Part shown: piece by piece, positions 26,014-33,156 of the stretch
How positions within the stretch are numbered: position 1 is the stretch's first letter
Layout: each line of letters starts with the position of its first letter
NCBI RefSeq assembly: GCF_013315695.1
Contig: NZ_CP054353.1
Strand: one strand, 5' to 3'
DNA from: Escherichia coli
GTDB taxonomy: Bacteria > Pseudomonadota > Gammaproteobacteria > Enterobacterales > Enterobacteriaceae
Length of the DNA stretch: 64,000 nucleotides
Position numbers and translations under genes: made by a program
The notes under the pieces: generated by a model
The model's database searches: none
The model's input: the letters and a program-made list of their open reading frames with translations, nothing else
Told to the model about the DNA's origin: nothing

Positions 26014-26523
26014 GTGGCTACGCAGACTGAAGTTGCCAGGCATTTAAGTCTGACCGATCGCCAGCTTCGCAGATTGCAGAAATTGCCGGGTGCCCCGATA
26101 TCGAATAAGCGAGGGCAACTGGATCTGGATGCCTGGCGCGATTTTTACATATCGTATCTGAGAAGAAGTAAAAACGATGTGCCTGATGGCGATAGCGAAG
26201 ACGACTATGAGGAGAAATTGCTTATTGCCAGATGGGAACTGACAGCAGAACAGGCTGTTACACAGCAGTTAAAAAATGAGGTGTCAAAAGGAAAACTTAT
26301 TGACACCGGGTTCTGTATTTTTGCCCTCAGCAAGCTGGCAATGGCGTTATCCAGTACGCTTGATTCCATCCCTTTATCCATGCAGCGACAGTTTCCTGAT
26401 TTAACACCGCGCCATCTTGACCATCTGAAAACCCTTATTGCGAAGGGGGCAAATCAGTGTGCGCGGGCGGGGGATAAATTACCGGATTTACTCGATGAAT
26501 ATATCAGAGCAACAACTGAATAA
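26014..26523 (+). CDS. nu1: Terminase small subunit, Nu1-like
   Basis: GTG start; C-terminal half TGFCIFALSKLAMALSSTLDSIPLSMQRQFPDLTPRHLDHL... resembles lambda Nu1. Confidence 0.8.
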   Translation: MATQTEVARHLSLTDRQLRRLQKLPGAPISNKRGQLDLDAWRDFYISYLRRSKNDVPDGDSEDDYEEKLLIARWELTAEQAVTQQLKNEVSKGKLIDTGFCIFALSKLAMALSSTLDSIPLSMQRQFPDLTPRHLDHLKTLIAKGANQCARAGDKLPDLLDEYIRATTE

Positions 26524-28412
26524 TATGATGAGTGCTGTCACAACAGCATTACAGCCCCTGATAAGGGCATTGCCGGTGACGCCAGTTGAATGGGCTGATC
26601 AAAATTATTATCTGCCTAAAGAATCTTCATATGGTGAGGGAGAATGGAAAACGCTGCCGTTCCAGATCGCCATCATGAACAGCATGGGGAATGATCAGAT
26701 CCGGACTGTTAATCTGATTAAATCTGCCCGTGTTGGCTATACAAAGATGTTGCTGGGGGTGGTCGGGTATTTTATTGAGCATAAATCCCGAAACAGTCTG
26801 CTTTTTCAGCCCACGGATTCTGCCGCTGAAGATTTTATGAAGTCTCACGTGGAGGCGACGATTCGGGATGTGCCATGTCTGAAAGACCTTTCTCCATGGC
26901 TGGGGCGTAAACATCGTGACAATACTCTCACGCTGAAACGCTTTTCATCGGGTGTGGGCTTCTGGTGCCTGGGCGGCGCTGCCGCCAAAAACTACCGTGA
27001 AAAATCCGTGGACGTGGTCTGCTATGACGAACTTTCCTCGTTCGAACCGGATGTCGAAAAAGAGGGTTCGCCAACCCTGCTTGGGGATAAACGTATTGAG
27101 GGCTCTGTATGGCCCAAATCCATTCGCGGCTCGACGCCTAAAATCAAAGGCACCTGCCAGATCGAAAAAGCGGCCAACGAGTCGGCGCATTTCATGCGTT
27201 TTTATGTGCCCTGCCCGCACTGTGGGGAGGCGCAGTATCTGAAATTTGGCGATGAGTCCACGCCTTTTGGCCTTAAATGGGAGAAGGACAGCCCCGAAAG
27301 CGTTTTCTACCTCTGTGAACATCATGGCTGCGTGATCCATCAGTCTGAGCTTGACCAGAGCAACGGGCGGTGGATCTGTGAAAACACGGGGATGTGGACC
27401 CGCGACGGTCTGACGTTTTTCAGCGCTGCGGATAATGAAATTCCGCCGCCGCGCTCCATCACATTCCATATCTGGACGGCGTACAGTCCGTTCACCACCT
27501 GGGTACAGATTGTCTATGACTGGCTGGATGCACTGAAAGATCCCAACGGCCTGAAAACCTTTGTGAACACCACGCTGGGCGAGACCTGGGAAGAGGCCGT
27601 GGGCGAAAAACTCGATCACCAGGTGCTGATGGATAAGGTTGTGCGTTACACGGCTGCGGTGCCTTCCCGGGTGGTTTATCTGACGGCGGGCATTGACTCG
27701 CAGCGAAACCGTTTTGAGATGTATGTCTGGGGATGGGCTCCGGGAGAGGAAGCCTTTCTGGTGGATAAAATCATCATTATGGGGCGTCCCGATGAGGAAG
27801 AGACGCTGTTACGTGTGGATGTGGCGATCAACAAAAAATACCGCCATGCAGACGGAACCGAAATGACCATTTCCCGTGTCTGCTGGGACACCGGGGGGAA
27901 TTGTCTATCAGAGGTCAAAAAAACACGGTGTTTTCCGGGTGCTGCCGGTAAAAGGTGCATCTGTTTATGGCAAGCCGGTGATCACCATGCCAAAAACCCG
28001 CAATCAGCGGGGCGTGTATCTGTGCGAAGTGGGGACGGACACCGCAAAAGAAATTCTCTATGCCCGTATGAAAGCCGATCCCACGCCTGCGGATGAAGCC
28101 ACGTCGTATGCCATCCGTTTTCCTGATGATCCGGAGATTTTTTCGCAGACAGAGGCGCAGCAACTGGTGGCGGAAGAGCTTGTGGAGAAGTGGGAAAAAG
28201 GAAAGATGCGTCTGCTGTGGGATAACAAAAAGCGGCGTAACGAAGCGCTGGACTGCCTGGTGTATGCCTACGCGGCATTACGTGTGTCCGTGCAACGCTG
28301 GCAGCTTGATCTGGCTGTACTGGCAAAATCCCGGGAAGAAGAGACGACCCGGCCAACCCTTAAAGAACTGGCAGCGAAGCTGTCCGGAGGAGTGAATGGT
28401 TACAGTCGCTGA
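26495..28412 (+). pseudogene. A: Terminase large subunit gpA, interrupted by a +1 frameshift near 27893-27900
   Basis: N-terminal 466 aa (MNISEQQLNN...ISRVCWDTGG) and C-terminal 170 aa (...IVYQRSKKHGVFRVLPVKGASVYGKP...) both lambda-gpA-like but in different frames; junction at ccggggggaattg. Confidence 0.6.
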
Positions 28413-28602
28413 ACTGCAGGCGCTGCGTCAGGCGCGCCTTGATTTATTAACCGGTAAACGGGTGGTGTCTGTCCAGAAAGATGGTCGCAGAATTGAATAT
28501 ACGGCAGCTTCTCTGGATGAGCTTAACCGGGCGATCAATGATGCGGAGTCGGTACTGGGGACAACCCGCCGTCGCCGTCGTCCGCTGGGAGTGAGGTTAT
28601 GA
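28396..28602 (+). CDS. W: Head-tail joining protein gpW
   Basis: MVTVAELQALRQARLDLLTGKRVVSVQKDGRRIEYTAASLDEL..., lambda-W-like. Confidence 0.85.
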   Translation: MVTVAELQALRQARLDLLTGKRVVSVQKDGRRIEYTAASLDELNRAINDAESVLGTTRRRRRPLGVRL

Positions 28603-30191
28603 AACGAACGCCTGTCCTGATTGATGTGAACGGCGTTCCGCTTCGGGAGAGCCTCAGCTACAACGGTGGCGGTGCAGGATTTGGCGGGCAAATGGCAGAG
28701 TGGTTGCCACCCTCGCAGAGTGCCGATGCGGCCCTGCTGCCCGCGTTGCGTCTGGGGAATGCCCGTGCAGATGATCTGGTGCGCAATAACGGAATAGCGG
28801 CCAATGCGGTGGCCCTGCATAAGGATCACATTGTCGGGCATATGTTTCTGATCAGTTACCGTCCGAACTGGCGCTGGCTGGGGATGCGGGAGACCGCGGC
28901 AAAAAGTTTTGTCGATGAGGTGGAGGCGGCCTGGTCAGAATACGCAGAAGGGATGTTTGGTGAGATCGACATGGAAGGGAAACGCACGTTCACGGAATTT
29001 ATCCGTGAAGGTGTGGGCGTTCATGCGTTTAACGGCGAAATCTTTGTGCAGCCGGTCTGGGATACGGAGAGCACGCAACTGTTTCGTACGCGTTTTAAAG
29101 CCGTGAGTCCGAAACGGGTGGACACGCCAGGACACGGTATGGGGAACCGTTTTCTGCGGGCCGGTGTGGAGGTCGATCGATATGGTCGTGCCGTTGCGTA
29201 CCATATCTGTGAGGATGATTTTCCTCGCTCCGGGAGTGGACGATGGGAACGGATCCCGCGTGAACTTCCCACCGGGCGTCCGGCCATGCTGCATATTTTC
29301 GAGCCGGTGGAGGACGGGCAGACCCGTGGGGCCAATCAGTTTTACAGCGTAATGGAACGGCTGAAGATGCTCGATTCCCTGCAGGCAACACAGCTTCAGT
29401 CGGCCATAGTGAAGGCGATGTATGCAGCGACGATTGAAAGTGAACTTGATACCGAAAAGGCCTTTGAATATATCGCCGGTGCGCCGCAGGGGCAGAAGGA
29501 TAATCCGCTTATTAATATTCTGGAGAAGTTCTCCACCTGGTATGACACGAATAGCGTGACGCTGGGCGGTGTCAAAATTCCGCACCTTTTCCCCGGTGAT
29601 GATCTGAAACTTCAGACCGCGCAGGATTCAGACAATGGATTTTCGGCGCTTGAACAGGCGCTGCTGCGGTATATCGCCGCCGGTCTTGGCGTTTCCTACG
29701 AACAGTTGTCCCGTGATTACTCGAAGGTCAGTTATTCAAGTGCCCGCGCATCCGCCAATGAGTCGTGGCGCTATTTTATGGGGCGGCGAAAATTTATTGC
29801 GTCCCGGCTGGCCACGCAGATGTTTTCCTGCTGGCTGGAAGAGGCACTTCTTCGGGGGATTATTCGTCCGCCACGGGCGCGTTTTGATTTTTATCAGGCG
29901 CGATCAGCCTGGTCACGGGCTGAGTGGATTGGAGCCGGAAGAATGGCCATTGACGGGCTCAAGGAGGTTCAGGAATCAGTGATGCGCATTGAGGCCGGAC
30001 TGAGCACGTATGAGAAAGAGCTGGCGCTGATGGGCGAGGATTATCAGGACATTTTCCGCCAGCAGGTCAGGGAATCTGCAGAGCGGGAAAAAGCCGGACT
30101 CTCACGTCCGGTGTGGATAGCGCAGGCGTATCAGCAGCAGATAGCGGAGAGTCGCAGGCCGGAAGAGGAGACAACACCACGTGAGACGTAA
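28599..30191 (+). CDS. B: Portal protein gpB
   Basis: 530 aa, lambda-B-like; start overlaps the W stop. Confidence 0.9.
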   Translation: MKRTPVLIDVNGVPLRESLSYNGGGAGFGGQMAEWLPPSQSADAALLPALRLGNARADDLVRNNGIAANAVALHKDHIVGHMFLISYRPNWRWLGMRETAAKSFVDEVEAAWSEYAEGMFGEIDMEGKRTFTEFIREGVGVHAFNGEIFVQPVWDTESTQLFRTRFKAVSPKRVDTPGHGMGNRFLRAGVEVDRYGRAVAYHICEDDFPRSGSGRWERIPRELPTGRPAMLHIFEPVEDGQTRGANQFYSVMERLKMLDSLQATQLQSAIVKAMYAATIESELDTEKAFEYIAGAPQGQKDNPLINILEKFSTWYDTNSVTLGGVKIPHLFPGDDLKLQTAQDSDNGFSALEQALLRYIAAGLGVSYEQLSRDYSKVSYSSARASANESWRYFMGRRKFIASRLATQMFSCWLEEALLRGIIRPPRARFDFYQARSAWSRAEWIGAGRMAIDGLKEVQESVMRIEAGLSTYEKELALMGEDYQDIFRQQVRESAEREKAGLSRPVWIAQAYQQQIAESRRPEEETTPRET

Positions 30192-31686
30192 TCTTTCACA
30201 CATTATTGCCGCAGCATTCAATGAACCGCTGCTTCTGGAGCCCGCCTATGCGCGGGTTTTCTTTTGCGCGCTCGGGCGCGAGATGGGGGCAGCAAGTCTT
30301 TCGGTACCGCAACAGCAGGTACAGCTTGATGCTCCCGGGATGCTGGCTGAAACGGACGAGTACATGGCCGGAGGTAAACGACCGGCCCGTGTTTACCGGG
30401 TGGTGAACGGTATTGCGGTACTGCCGGTGACCGGCACGCTGGTGCACCGGCTGGGGGGGATGCGGCCATTTTCCGGAATGACTGGCTATGACGGCATTGT
30501 CGCCTGTCTTCAGCAGGCAATGGCAGATAGCCAGGTGCGGGGCATACTGCTGGACATTGACAGTCCGGGCGGGCAGGCCGCCGGCGCGTTTGACTGCGCT
30601 GACATGATTTACCGCCTCCGGCAGCAGAAGCCGGTCTGGGCACTGTGTAATGACACGGCCTGTTCTGCAGCCATGCTGCTGGCGTCGGCCTGCTCCCGAC
30701 GGCTGGTTACCCAGACATCCCGTATCGGCTCCATTGGCGTGATGATGAGCCATGTCAGCTATGCCGGTCATCTGGCGCAGGCCGGTGTGGATATCACGCT
30801 GATTTACTCAGGAGCGCACAAGGTGGATGGCAATCAGTTTGAAGCGTTGCCGGCAGAGGTTCGCCAGGACATGCAGCAGCGGATTGATGCGGCGCGCCGG
30901 ATGTTTGCCGAAAAAGTGGCGATGTATACCGGTCTGTCTGTTGATGCGGTCACGGGAACAGAGGCTGCCGTTTTTGAAGGTCAGTCCGGCATTGAGGCCG
31001 GGCTGGCGGATGAATTAATCAATGCGTCGGATGCCATCAGTGTGATGGCCACGGCGCTGAACAGTAATGTCAGAGGAGGCACTATGCCGCAATTAACTGC
31101 AACGGAAGCCGCCGTGCAGGAGAACCAGCGAGTGATGGGGATCCTGACATGCCAGGAAGCGAAAGGACGTGAACAGCTTGCCACGATGCTGGCAGGGCAA
31201 CAGGGCATGAGCGTTGAACAGGCCCGGGCGATTCTGGCCGCGGCGGCACCGCAGCAGCCGGTGGCATCCGCACAGAGTGAAGCCGATCGCATTATGGCGT
31301 GTGAAGAAGCGAACGGTCGTGAACAACTGGCGGCAACGCTGGCGGCGATGCCGGAGATGACGGTGGAAAAAGCCCGCCCGATCCTGGCTGCTTCACCGCA
31401 GGCGAATGCCGGACCATCACTCCGTGATCAGATCATGGCACTGGATGAGGCAAAAGGGGCTGAGGCGCAGGCTGAACAGCTGGCTGCCTGCCCGGGAATG
31501 ACTGTGGAGAGCGCCCGGGCTGTGCTGGCTGCGGGATCAGGTAAGGCAGAACCGGTCTCTGCATCCACAACCGCCCTGTTTGAACATTTCATGGCGAACC
31601 ATTCACCGGCTGCGGTCCAGGGGGGCGTGTCACAGGCGTCAGAAGACGGTGATGCGGACGTGAAAATGCTCATGGCCATGCCATGA
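30181..31686 (+). CDS. C: Head protease/scaffold gpC-like (S49-type peptidase N-domain plus repeat-containing C-terminal region)
   Basis: GTG start overlapping the B stop; three tandem ~40-aa repeats in the C-terminal half. Confidence 0.8.
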   Translation: MRRNLSHIIAAAFNEPLLLEPAYARVFFCALGREMGAASLSVPQQQVQLDAPGMLAETDEYMAGGKRPARVYRVVNGIAVLPVTGTLVHRLGGMRPFSGMTGYDGIVACLQQAMADSQVRGILLDIDSPGGQAAGAFDCADMIYRLRQQKPVWALCNDTACSAAMLLASACSRRLVTQTSRIGSIGVMMSHVSYAGHLAQAGVDITLIYSGAHKVDGNQFEALPAEVRQDMQQRIDAARRMFAEKVAMYTGLSVDAVTGTEAAVFEGQSGIEAGLADELINASDAISVMATALNSNVRGGTMPQLTATEAAVQENQRVMGILTCQEAKGREQLATMLAGQQGMSVEQARAILAAAAPQQPVASAQSEADRIMACEEANGREQLAATLAAMPEMTVEKARPILAASPQANAGPSLRDQIMALDEAKGAEAQAEQLAACPGMTVESARAVLAAGSGKAEPVSASTTALFEHFMANHSPAAVQGGVSQASEDGDADVKMLMAMP

Positions 31687-31722: not shown

Positions 31723-32070
31723 ATGGTGACGAAAACCATCACTGAACAGCGTGCGGAAGTACGTATTTTTGCCGGTAATGATCCGGCTCACACCGCCACA
31801 GGCAGCAGCGGGATTTCCTCGGCAACACCGGCACTGACACCCCTGATGCTGGATGGGGCCACCGGGAAACTGGTGGTCTGGGACGGACAGAAAGCCGGTA
31901 GTGCGGTTGGCATACTGGTACTGCCGCTTGAAGGCACAGAGGAGGTGCTGACCTATTACAAGTCGGGGACCTTTGCGACGGAGGCAATCCGCTGGCCTGA
32001 AAGTGTGGATGAACACAAAAAGGCCAACGCCTTTACCGGCAGTGCCCTGAGTCACGCGGCGCTGCCGTAA
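31723..32070 (+). CDS. D: Head decoration protein gpD
   Basis: ...NDPAHTATGSSGISSATPALTPLMLDGATGKLVVWDG...YYKSGTF..., lambda-D-like. Confidence 0.85.
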   Translation: MVTKTITEQRAEVRIFAGNDPAHTATGSSGISSATPALTPLMLDGATGKLVVWDGQKAGSAVGILVLPLEGTEEVLTYYKSGTFATEAIRWPESVDEHKKANAFTGSALSHAALP

Positions 32071-32127: not shown

Positions 32128-33156
32128 ATGGGATTGTTTACGACCCGCCAGTTACTCGGTTATACCGAACAAAAAGTTAAATTCCGTGCGCTGTTTCTGG
32201 AGCTGTTTTTCCGCCGTACGGTGAATTTCCACACCGAAGAGGTGATGCTGGACAAAATTACCGGAAAAACGCCGGTGGCGGCCTATGTCTCCCCGATCGT
32301 TGAAGGAAAAGTGCTTCGCCATCGCGGTGGTGAAACCCGCGTGTTACGTCCGGGCTACGTCAAGCCCAAACACGAATTTAATTACCAGCAGGCGGTTGAG
32401 CGCCTTCCTGGTGAAGATCCGGCTCAGCTGAACGACCCGGCCTACCGTCGTCTGCGTATCATTACCGATAACCTCAAACAGGAAGAGCACGCCATTGTCC
32501 AGGTGGAAGAAATGCAGGCGGTGAATGCCGTGCTGTATGGCAAATACACCATGGAAGGGGATCAGTTTGATACTGTCGAGGTGGATTTCGGGCGCTCTGA
32601 AGGAAATAACATTGAGCAGGCTGACGGTAAAAAATGGTCTGAGCAGGACCGTGATACGTTTGATCCGACGCATGATATTGACCTCTACTGCGATCAGGCC
32701 AGCGGCCTTGTGAATATCGCCATTATGGACGGTACGGTCTGGCGTCTGCTGAATGGCTTTAAGCTGTTCCGCGAAAAACTGGATACCCGTCGCGGCTCAA
32801 ATTCACAACTCGAAACGGCAGTGAAAGACCTGGGGGCGGTGGTGTCCTTCAAGGGGTATTACGGCGATCTGGCCATTGTGGTGGCGAAAACGTCTTATGT
32901 GGCAGAAGACGGTACCGAAAAACGTTATCTGCCGGAGGGCACACTGGTCCTGGGGAATACGGCAGCAGAGGGCATTCGTTGCTATGGTGCCATTCAGGAT
33001 GCGCAGGCGTTGTCCGAAGGTGTGGTGGCCTCTTCCCGTTATCCGAAACACTGGCTGACTGTGGGCGATCCGGCCCGTGAATTCACCATGACGCAGTCCG
33101 CACCGCTGATGGTGCTGCCGGATCCGGATGAGTTTGTGGTGGTACAGGTGAAATAA
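32128..33156 (+). CDS. E: Major capsid protein gpE
   Basis: 342 aa, closely lambda-E-like (...RIEGSVWPK-type motifs, C-terminal GDPAREFTMTQSAPLMVLPDPDEFVVVQV). Confidence 0.9.
   Translation: MGLFTTRQLLGYTEQKVKFRALFLELFFRRTVNFHTEEVMLDKITGKTPVAAYVSPIVEGKVLRHRGGETRVLRPGYVKPKHEFNYQQAVERLPGEDPAQLNDPAYRRLRIITDNLKQEEHAIVQVEEMQAVNAVLYGKYTMEGDQFDTVEVDFGRSEGNNIEQADGKKWSEQDRDTFDPTHDIDLYCDQASGLVNIAIMDGTVWRLLNGFKLFREKLDTRRGSNSQLETAVKDLGAVVSFKGYYGDLAIVVAKTSYVAEDGTEKRYLPEGTLVLGNTAAEGIRCYGAIQDAQALSEGVVASSRYPKHWLTVGDPAREFTMTQSAPLMVLPDPDEFVVVQVK

Follow-up and report, generated by a model that had tools for sequence, protein, structure and literature searches.

In bacteriophage lambda the procapsid scaffold is Nu3, which is required for portal protein B to be incorporated into procapsids, is degraded by the prohead protease gpC, and is reported to interact with B, with C, with the capsid protein E and with itself (PMC3224144). 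The scaffold gene is nested in the protease gene, and the genes follow each other in the order portal, protease/scaffold, decoration protein and capsid protein E. In phage 21 the corresponding genes are gene 5, of 501 amino acids (aa), and the nested gene 6, of 200 aa, and record M81255 annotates three repeat regions in them, the "Tri1 box", the "Tri box" and the "Tri3 box", each with the remark "function unknown; putative". The source paper of this record I take to be Smith & Feiss 1993 (Gene 126:1). Here I describe a homologue of this gene in a stretch of 64,000 nucleotides, further called the window, from Escherichia coli (contig NZ_CP054353.1, assembly GCF_013315695.1), and in particular the three repeated units at the end of its product.

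The 501-aa gene, the nested gene of 200 aa and the three boxes are all present in the window as they are in phage 21, from which it differs by a handful of substitutions (98.2% nucleotide identity to gene 5 in M81255 and OL657228); the identity to the gene in many isolated lambdoid E. coli phages is 94-98%. As judged from the coordinates transferred from M81255, the repeats coincide with the Tri boxes of phage 21, and are hence already known rather than new. They have little value as a discovery: those of phage 21 were recorded as early as the beginning of the 1990s, and few prophage genes of E. coli are as common as this one, which is present in 1,865 of 5,426 complete genomes (at least 80% coverage). 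However, literature searches on the phage 21 repeat, the structure of Nu3 and lambda procapsid scaffolds yielded nothing on the unit, which appears to be a conserved module of lambda-type scaffolds without a curated family or structure and is predicted to fold alone. With one, two, three and four copies, the natural lineages form a ready set in which the effect of scaffold valency on the assembly of the procapsid could be studied.

Three repeated units in the scaffold protein

A preliminary description of this locus, made from the letters alone, had pointed to three tandem repeats of about 40 aa at 31130-31550, in a gpC-like head protease/scaffold protein longer than lambda C. The repeats are borne out by self-alignment of the protein: local BLOSUM62 scores between the units are 85-101, against a mean of about 26 (standard deviation about 5) after shuffling (z = 11-16), and none out of 2000 composition-preserving shuffles equals an observed unit-pair score. 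In addition, each of the single-copy scaffold profiles phrog_8399, phrog_8940, phrog_17040 and phrog_16406 finds three distinct matches within the last 200 aa. The units span 31120-31539, in agreement with the location given before, and the identification of the protein agrees with its S49 peptidase domain (PF01343) and with the identity to phage 21 gene 5, as does its length with respect to lambda C (501 vs. 439 aa). The proposed repeat length holds for the unit itself, of 42-44 aa, but not for the period, which is 47-51 aa including a linker of 5-7 aa, and the proposed consensus needs correction for unit 1, where the register is two residues longer (VMGILTCQEA vs. IMACEEA).

At the DNA level no repeat can be detected in this gene: Tandem Repeats Finder (TRF) reports none, and a seed search yields only chance-like matches of 12-25 nucleotides (nt). 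The units are 51-57% identical to each other as protein and 58-65% as DNA, and only about 40% of the residues identical between units share the codon as well. The three repeats are thus real, and exist at the level of the protein only.

All three units match the signature of the Nu3-type unit, R-I-x-x-I-x-x-C-E-E-A-K-G-R-E-x-L-A...M-S/T-V-E/D-x-A...L-A-A-A-P, in which the conserved positions other than alanine are R6, I10, E15, G18, R19 and L41. The GRE motif has its arginine conserved to 90% or more throughout the family, but alanine takes its place (GAE) in unit 3 of the phage 21 lineage, whereas unit 3 of other lineages has kept the arginine. The units are acidic to neutral, with isoelectric points (pI) of 4.4-6.4. 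In the wider family, too, a tail comes after the last unit; it is comparable in length, mostly 40-70 aa, and bears a conserved AM...PxVG signature.

The repeats lie within the nested scaffold gene, and therefore belong both to the Nu3-type scaffold and to the identical C-terminus of the protease; this refines the earlier placement in a scaffold-like C-terminal region of the protein. The start codon ATG at 31084 is preceded, at a distance of 4 nt, by the Shine-Dalgarno sequence GAGGAGG, and the start methionine is kept across an alignment of 16 sequences. From this internal start a separate scaffold protein is putatively made, as annotated in phage 21, where the product is labelled "head-tail preconnector gp6" in M81255 and "scaffolding protein" in OL657228; public assemblies independently call it as proteins of 199-200 aa (P0002, P0003). 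The gp6 of the window has 200 aa and 20.5 kDa, is acidic (pI 4.6), and consists for 23% of alanine.

The RefSeq lambda nu3 (NC_001416, 5132..5737; L011:947-1552) begins at codon 239 of C and encodes 201 aa, its start lying upstream of the start equivalent to that of phage 21 gene 6, whereas the records of phage 21, phi80 and BcepNazgul begin the nested scaffold much later, right after a conserved GG-x-M; the strong Shine-Dalgarno sequence of the window sits at this GG-x-M start position. The annotated scaffold starts are therefore inconsistent among records. OL657228 furthermore annotates two "CII binding sites" (TTGYN6TTGY) on the minus strand inside the scaffold gene, corresponding to 31089-31102 and 31323-31336 of the window. 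As the pattern is found 12 times in the window where 15.3 occurrences are expected by chance, these are most likely meaningless pattern matches.

Age and copy number of the unit

Each unit of the window is closest to the unit at the same position in other phages (77-95% identity for unit 1, 78-85% for unit 2 and 62-74% for unit 3). With respect to the Salmonella prophage Gifsy-1, same-position units are 62-80% identical, compared to the 51-57% between units within the protein, while synonymous sites are saturated (proportion of synonymous differences, pS, 0.62-0.75); the triplication therefore predates the split of phage 21 and Gifsy-1. The proportion of nonsynonymous differences (pN) to Gifsy-1 is 0.14, 0.19 and 0.27 for the three units, which is comparable to the 0.17 of the S49 domain and far below the 0.50 of the tail, from which it follows that all three copies are maintained. 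As far as can be read from these sequence comparisons, each copy is kept under purifying selection and the triplication is ancient.

The number of units differs among relatives, as the comparison of prophages proposed beforehand has brought out. One unit is present in lambda (439-aa C), phi80, Vibrio phage HY01 and the chi-like phage BP12C, and three in Gifsy-1 and many prophage proteins from Salmonella and E. coli that are 45-65% identical to gp6. A separate E. coli prophage lineage (P0040, L009), found in about 105 of the 5,426 complete genomes, has four, and none of the isolated phages in the collection carries a four-unit scaffold. Rare forms have two units (P0018, P0022) or a truncated unit 2, by a deletion of 19 aa, in P0009, P0010 and H123. 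The two-unit and four-unit variants were found by a word-indexed homologue search with gp6, which for the most part returns fragments, from near-identical proteins of E. coli and Salmonella. Unit 2 is partly or wholly deleted in P0009, P0010, P0015, P0018 and P0022, of which P0022 is an in-register recombinant between units 1 and 2; the 19-aa (57-bp) deletion within unit 2 is shared by a cluster of 53 member sequences, and the match in H123 (NZ_LR130564.1) is 57 bp shorter. Units 2-4 of the four-unit lineage share 82-92% identity with one another, and here TRF does find a tandem repeat, with a period of 138 bp (L009:410-918, E. coli GCA_032727965.1). By these identities the module has been expanded independently in this lineage, and more recently. 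The repeat expansion suggested in the preliminary description consequently stands as history, with three units in the window against one in lambda, phi80, HY01 and the chi-like phage, but not as a recent or ongoing process.

Searched against 1.84 billion representative proteins, the unit profile retrieves 1,943 cluster representatives (E <= 1e-3), and among the best 150 of these one unit is found in 139, two in 8 and three in 3. The distant proteins P0099 and P0185 contain internal unit duplications of their own. Among 50,697 phage genomes there are 222 unit-bearing records, from lambdoid phages, Casjensviridae, and phages of Vibrio, Aeromonas, Proteus, Klebsiella, Xylella and Burkholderia. 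In the proteins scanned, the unit is fused to or nested in S49 head proteases, leaving aside the short proteins P0099 and P0145, which have no Pfam match.

Some of the proteins encountered (P0115, P0117, P0118, P0114 and P0043) are chimeras, in which the S49 protease/scaffold is joined to tail protein U or L, to a fragment of a tape-measure protein or of a terminase nuclease, or to an N-terminus resembling a DPPY methyltransferase. These look like deletion scars of decaying prophages. In Rhizobium phage PPF1, ORF06 (L019:5429-5974), located directly 3' of a short S49 protease, is annotated as "putative lytic murein transglycosylase". Neither Pfam nor the hidden Markov model of the unit gives a match to it, but a diverged Nu3-like unit can be discerned by eye (ERMSAVLGATGIKGDGKRMAAALDLAVGSPAMAADAVTAFV), so that it is probably a mis-annotated separate scaffold gene.

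Proposed docking function and its alternatives

Two AlphaFold models bear on the structure of the unit. In a model of the whole gp6, made with 16 homologues, the units have a confidence (predicted local distance difference test, pLDDT) of 73-83 and the linkers of about 62-64, the helices of unit 1 reaching 79-83, and the predicted template modelling score (pTM) is 0.28; the low order of the linkers and the low pTM argue against a fixed packing among units. In a model of a unit plus tail, based on an alignment of 72 sequences, the unit forms a compact three-helix module with a pLDDT of 87-93, followed by one further helix in the tail (pLDDT about 70), the remainder being disordered. The prediction is thus of a chain of beads, each unit folding independently into a small bundle of three helices. 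No model in Pfam or NCBIfam covers the unit, a search of PDB sequences with the unit profile gives no solved structure and only a spurious match to a designed repeat protein, and Foldseek finds no match for the whole gp6 model.

Taken together, I consider it probable, albeit with some reserve, that the Tri boxes, an old triplication of a Nu3-type module, act as independent, multivalent docking units in the procapsid. Each unit would be an autonomous protein-binding module of the scaffold, and three of them on flexible linkers would render both gp6 and the protease, whose C-terminus is the same, multivalent towards a partner in the procapsid. This partner would most likely be the shell of capsid protein, contacted on its inner face; failing that, it would be the portal of the lambda family or further molecules of the scaffold. 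Such valency could aid the nucleation and filling of the procapsid and draw the protease inside, after which the S49 protease would cut the scaffold, plausibly in the exposed linkers, and the fragments would leave before DNA is packaged. In the scaffolds of other phages, helical C-terminal modules dock on the coat protein (PMC11565965).

Several observations weigh against this explanation. The function of the unit is annotated as unknown even in phage 21 (M81255), and neither PDB nor Foldseek relates its sequence or fold to a scaffold domain of solved structure. The unit is not located at the extreme C-terminus, the site of the coat-binding elements of the P22 type, as unit 3 still has a tail of 48 aa behind it. 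In the phage 21 lineage this unit lacks the near-invariant arginine, and the variants that have two units, or unit 2 cut short, indicate that the full set of three intact copies may be dispensable. Finally, phages with the same capsid family and a Mu-type portal are without the unit, which speaks, though weakly, against a generic binding to capsid E. A more far-reaching proposal, to which I would give a modest chance, is that the unit is an unclassified but widespread three-helix docking domain by which scaffolds with an S49 protease are specifically coupled to portals of the lambda family, or else to the shell of the capsid, with the copy number (one, three or four) tuning valency and hence the nucleation or fidelity of the procapsid.

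Alternatively, the unit may be a portal-recruitment module, which would bind gp4/gpB and bring scaffold and protease to the nucleating vertex and not to the shell. In a comparison by hand of 10 phages, all six unit-bearing phages with a portal typed by Pfam (the window, BcepNazgul, RcGingersnap, AchV4, Ppu-503 and Ruegeria V18) have a PF05136 portal, whereas Sf19, Barba5A and D22, which combine an S49 protease and an E-type capsid with a Mu-family portal, are devoid of the unit and have coiled-coil-like C-termini instead; the requirement of Nu3 for B incorporation, known from lambda genetics (cited in PMC3224144), fits in as well. This co-occurrence speaks for a connection with the portal, or just with the entire lambda-type head module, but it is confounded by common descent: the sample comprises two or three clades, which may just have inherited the head module as a whole. 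As a capsid has one portal, three or four modules per chain would moreover offer no obvious advantage, and interactions of Nu3 with E and with itself have been reported too (PMC3224144), so I regard portal recruitment as unlikely. The Nu3 dimers reported there would suit units that serve in self-association, building a cross-linked internal network or setting the length of the scaffold, while the tail does the capsid binding. Elsewhere the coat is bound by the extreme C-terminus of the scaffold (PMC11565965), which here is the tail and not the unit, and the tail has a conserved signature and a predicted helix of its own. Against this, the AlphaFold model of gp6 shows no packing of units within the chain, and the conserved exposed polar residues (EA-GRE) would equally fit a heterologous partner; I consider self-association quite unlikely.

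A recent expansion by slippage or unequal crossing-over, neutral or transient and confined to this prophage, would be in line with a copy number that varies from one to four among relatives, with the in-register deletion in the recombinant P0022, and with the younger expansion held by the four-unit lineage. It is nevertheless very improbable, as the units have diverged to 58-65% DNA identity without a repeat that TRF can find, their position-specific orthology extends to Gifsy-1 and other prophages across saturated synonymous divergence, and the three-unit layout recurs in the roughly 1,865 E. coli genomes mentioned above and in isolated phages, including phage 21. Same-position orthology, divergence of the units, and pS and pN with respect to Gifsy-1 refute a recent expansion at this locus. 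That the similarity is an artefact of low complexity in sequence rich in Ala, Glu and Gln, or reflects a repeated DNA signal instead of a protein module, is hardly credible, even though gp6 is so rich in alanine and two CII patterns are annotated in the gene. Composition-preserving shuffles never come near the observed scores, the unit profile retrieves its 1,943 proteins with conserved positions other than alanine, and there is no DNA repeat, the CII pattern being no more frequent than expected. Shuffles, profile search and pattern counts refute this reading.

Neighbouring genes and related systems

The S49 peptidase domain occupies the N-terminal two thirds of the 501-aa protein and the repeats its C-terminal third (Table 1). 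The protein matches phrog_53, "head maturation protease" (E = 8e-229), and the S49 domain matches the structures 3rst and 4kwb of Bacillus subtilis SppA (E about 3e-16). S162, within ACSAA, and K214, within GAHKVD, are presumed to form the Ser/Lys catalytic dyad, as both motifs align to SppA. In the window the protease/scaffold gene is preceded by a lambda-family portal gene and followed by genes for a decoration protein and an E-family capsid protein, as in the lambda gpC / phage 21 gp5 family.

Table 1. Features of the protease/scaffold locus and its neighbours in the window (nt, nucleotide positions; CDS, coding sequence; RBS, ribosome binding site)
Feature	Position (nt)	Strand	Basis and remarks
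Portal protein, lambda family (candidate partner)	28599..30191	+	Pfam PF05136, E = 2.3e-100
Gene 5 homologue, lambda gpC-like S49 prohead protease with C-terminal scaffold region	30181..31686	+	501 aa, GTG start
Peptidase_S49 (SppA-type) catalytic domain, aa 146-293	30616..31059	+	Pfam PF01343, E = 3.8e-35
Presumed catalytic dyad, Ser162 and Lys214	30664-30666 and 30820-30822	+	Invariant in alignment of 8 diverse phage S49 proteases
Shine-Dalgarno GAGGAGG of nested scaffold gene	31073..31079	+	Read from sequence; RBS annotated at equivalent position in M81255 and OL657228
In-frame nested scaffold gene, phage 21 gene 6 / lambda Nu3 homologue	31084..31686	+	CDS annotated in M81255 and OL657228
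Unit 1, aa 314-357, ENQRVMGILTCQEAKGREQLATMLAGQQGMSVEQARAILAAAAP	31120-31251	+	Profile envelope; lambda-type unit, first helix longer; contains Tri1 box
Tri1 box, aa 324-358	31151-31254	+	Transferred from M81255
Linker 1, QQPVASA, uncharged, low predicted order	31252..31272	+	Sequence and model
Unit 2, aa 365-406, QSEADRIMACEEANGREQLAATLAAMPEMTVEKARPILAASP	31273-31398	+	Profile envelope; contains Tri box
Tri box, aa 371-407	31291-31401	+	Transferred from M81255
Linker 2, QANAG	31399..31413	+	Sequence and model
Unit 3, aa 412-453, PSLRDQIMALDEAKGAEAQAEQLAACPGMTVESARAVLAAGS	31414-31539	+	Profile envelope; contains Tri3 box; three helices predicted
Tri3 box, aa 418-455	31432-31545	+	Transferred from M81255
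Acidic C-terminal tail, 48 aa; predicted helix at TTALFEHFMANHSP and short terminal helix	31540..31683	+	Sequence and model
Head decoration protein, phage 21 shp / lambda D homologue	31723..32070	+	Neighbour gene downstream
Major capsid protein, lambda E family (candidate partner)	32128..33156	+	Pfam PF03864, E = 1.2e-66

Further upstream, the gene of the large terminase subunit is broken into two overlapping open reading frames (26438..28096 and 27876..28412). Compared to a near-identical prophage of E. coli NMBU_W05E18, in which the terminase is intact (643 aa), the window lacks 11 bp (ATCGATGGCGA) at about 27899, so that the prophage is probably packaging-defective, unless the loss is an assembly error. 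In the close relative NZ_CP042878.1, a frameshifted transposase pseudogene (L010:1085-1494) is located between the lysis cassette and the gene of the small terminase subunit; the BLAST alignment of this relative with the window breaks there (L010 328-1575 unaligned), which means that the window differs at this point.

The S49 part of lambda gpC is 54% identical to the window protein over aa 3-344, and in lambda gpNu3 the unit (RIMGILNCEEAHGREEQARVLAETPGMTVKTARRILAAAP) is likewise followed by a tail. Lambda differs in having one unit instead of three, preceded by a longer spacer rich in Thr, Ser and Ala, and a shorter protein as a whole. The gpC homologue of Gifsy-1, STM2605, has 498 aa and three units in the same order as the window; its unit 3 keeps GRE where the phage 21 lineage has GAE, and the tails are 31% identical. 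Among generic interaction domains built as three-helix bundles, UBA/CUE, protein A/GA and RuvA domain III were considered as nearest systems.

Between the unit and the coat-binding domain of the P22 scaffold gp8 no relationship in sequence or fold can be detected, and the unit is a repeated three-helix module that does not occupy the extreme C-terminus. The P22 domain is basic and the P22 scaffold is recycled; in the window system the protease is fused to the scaffold and would degrade it. However, the helix-turn-helix domain of gp8, to which helical elements in phi29, 80alpha and SPP1 are analogous, is likewise helical and small, and belongs to the C-terminal part of a scaffold that is transient (PMC11565965), and the role that may be expected of both, by analogy, is protein-protein docking inside the procapsid.

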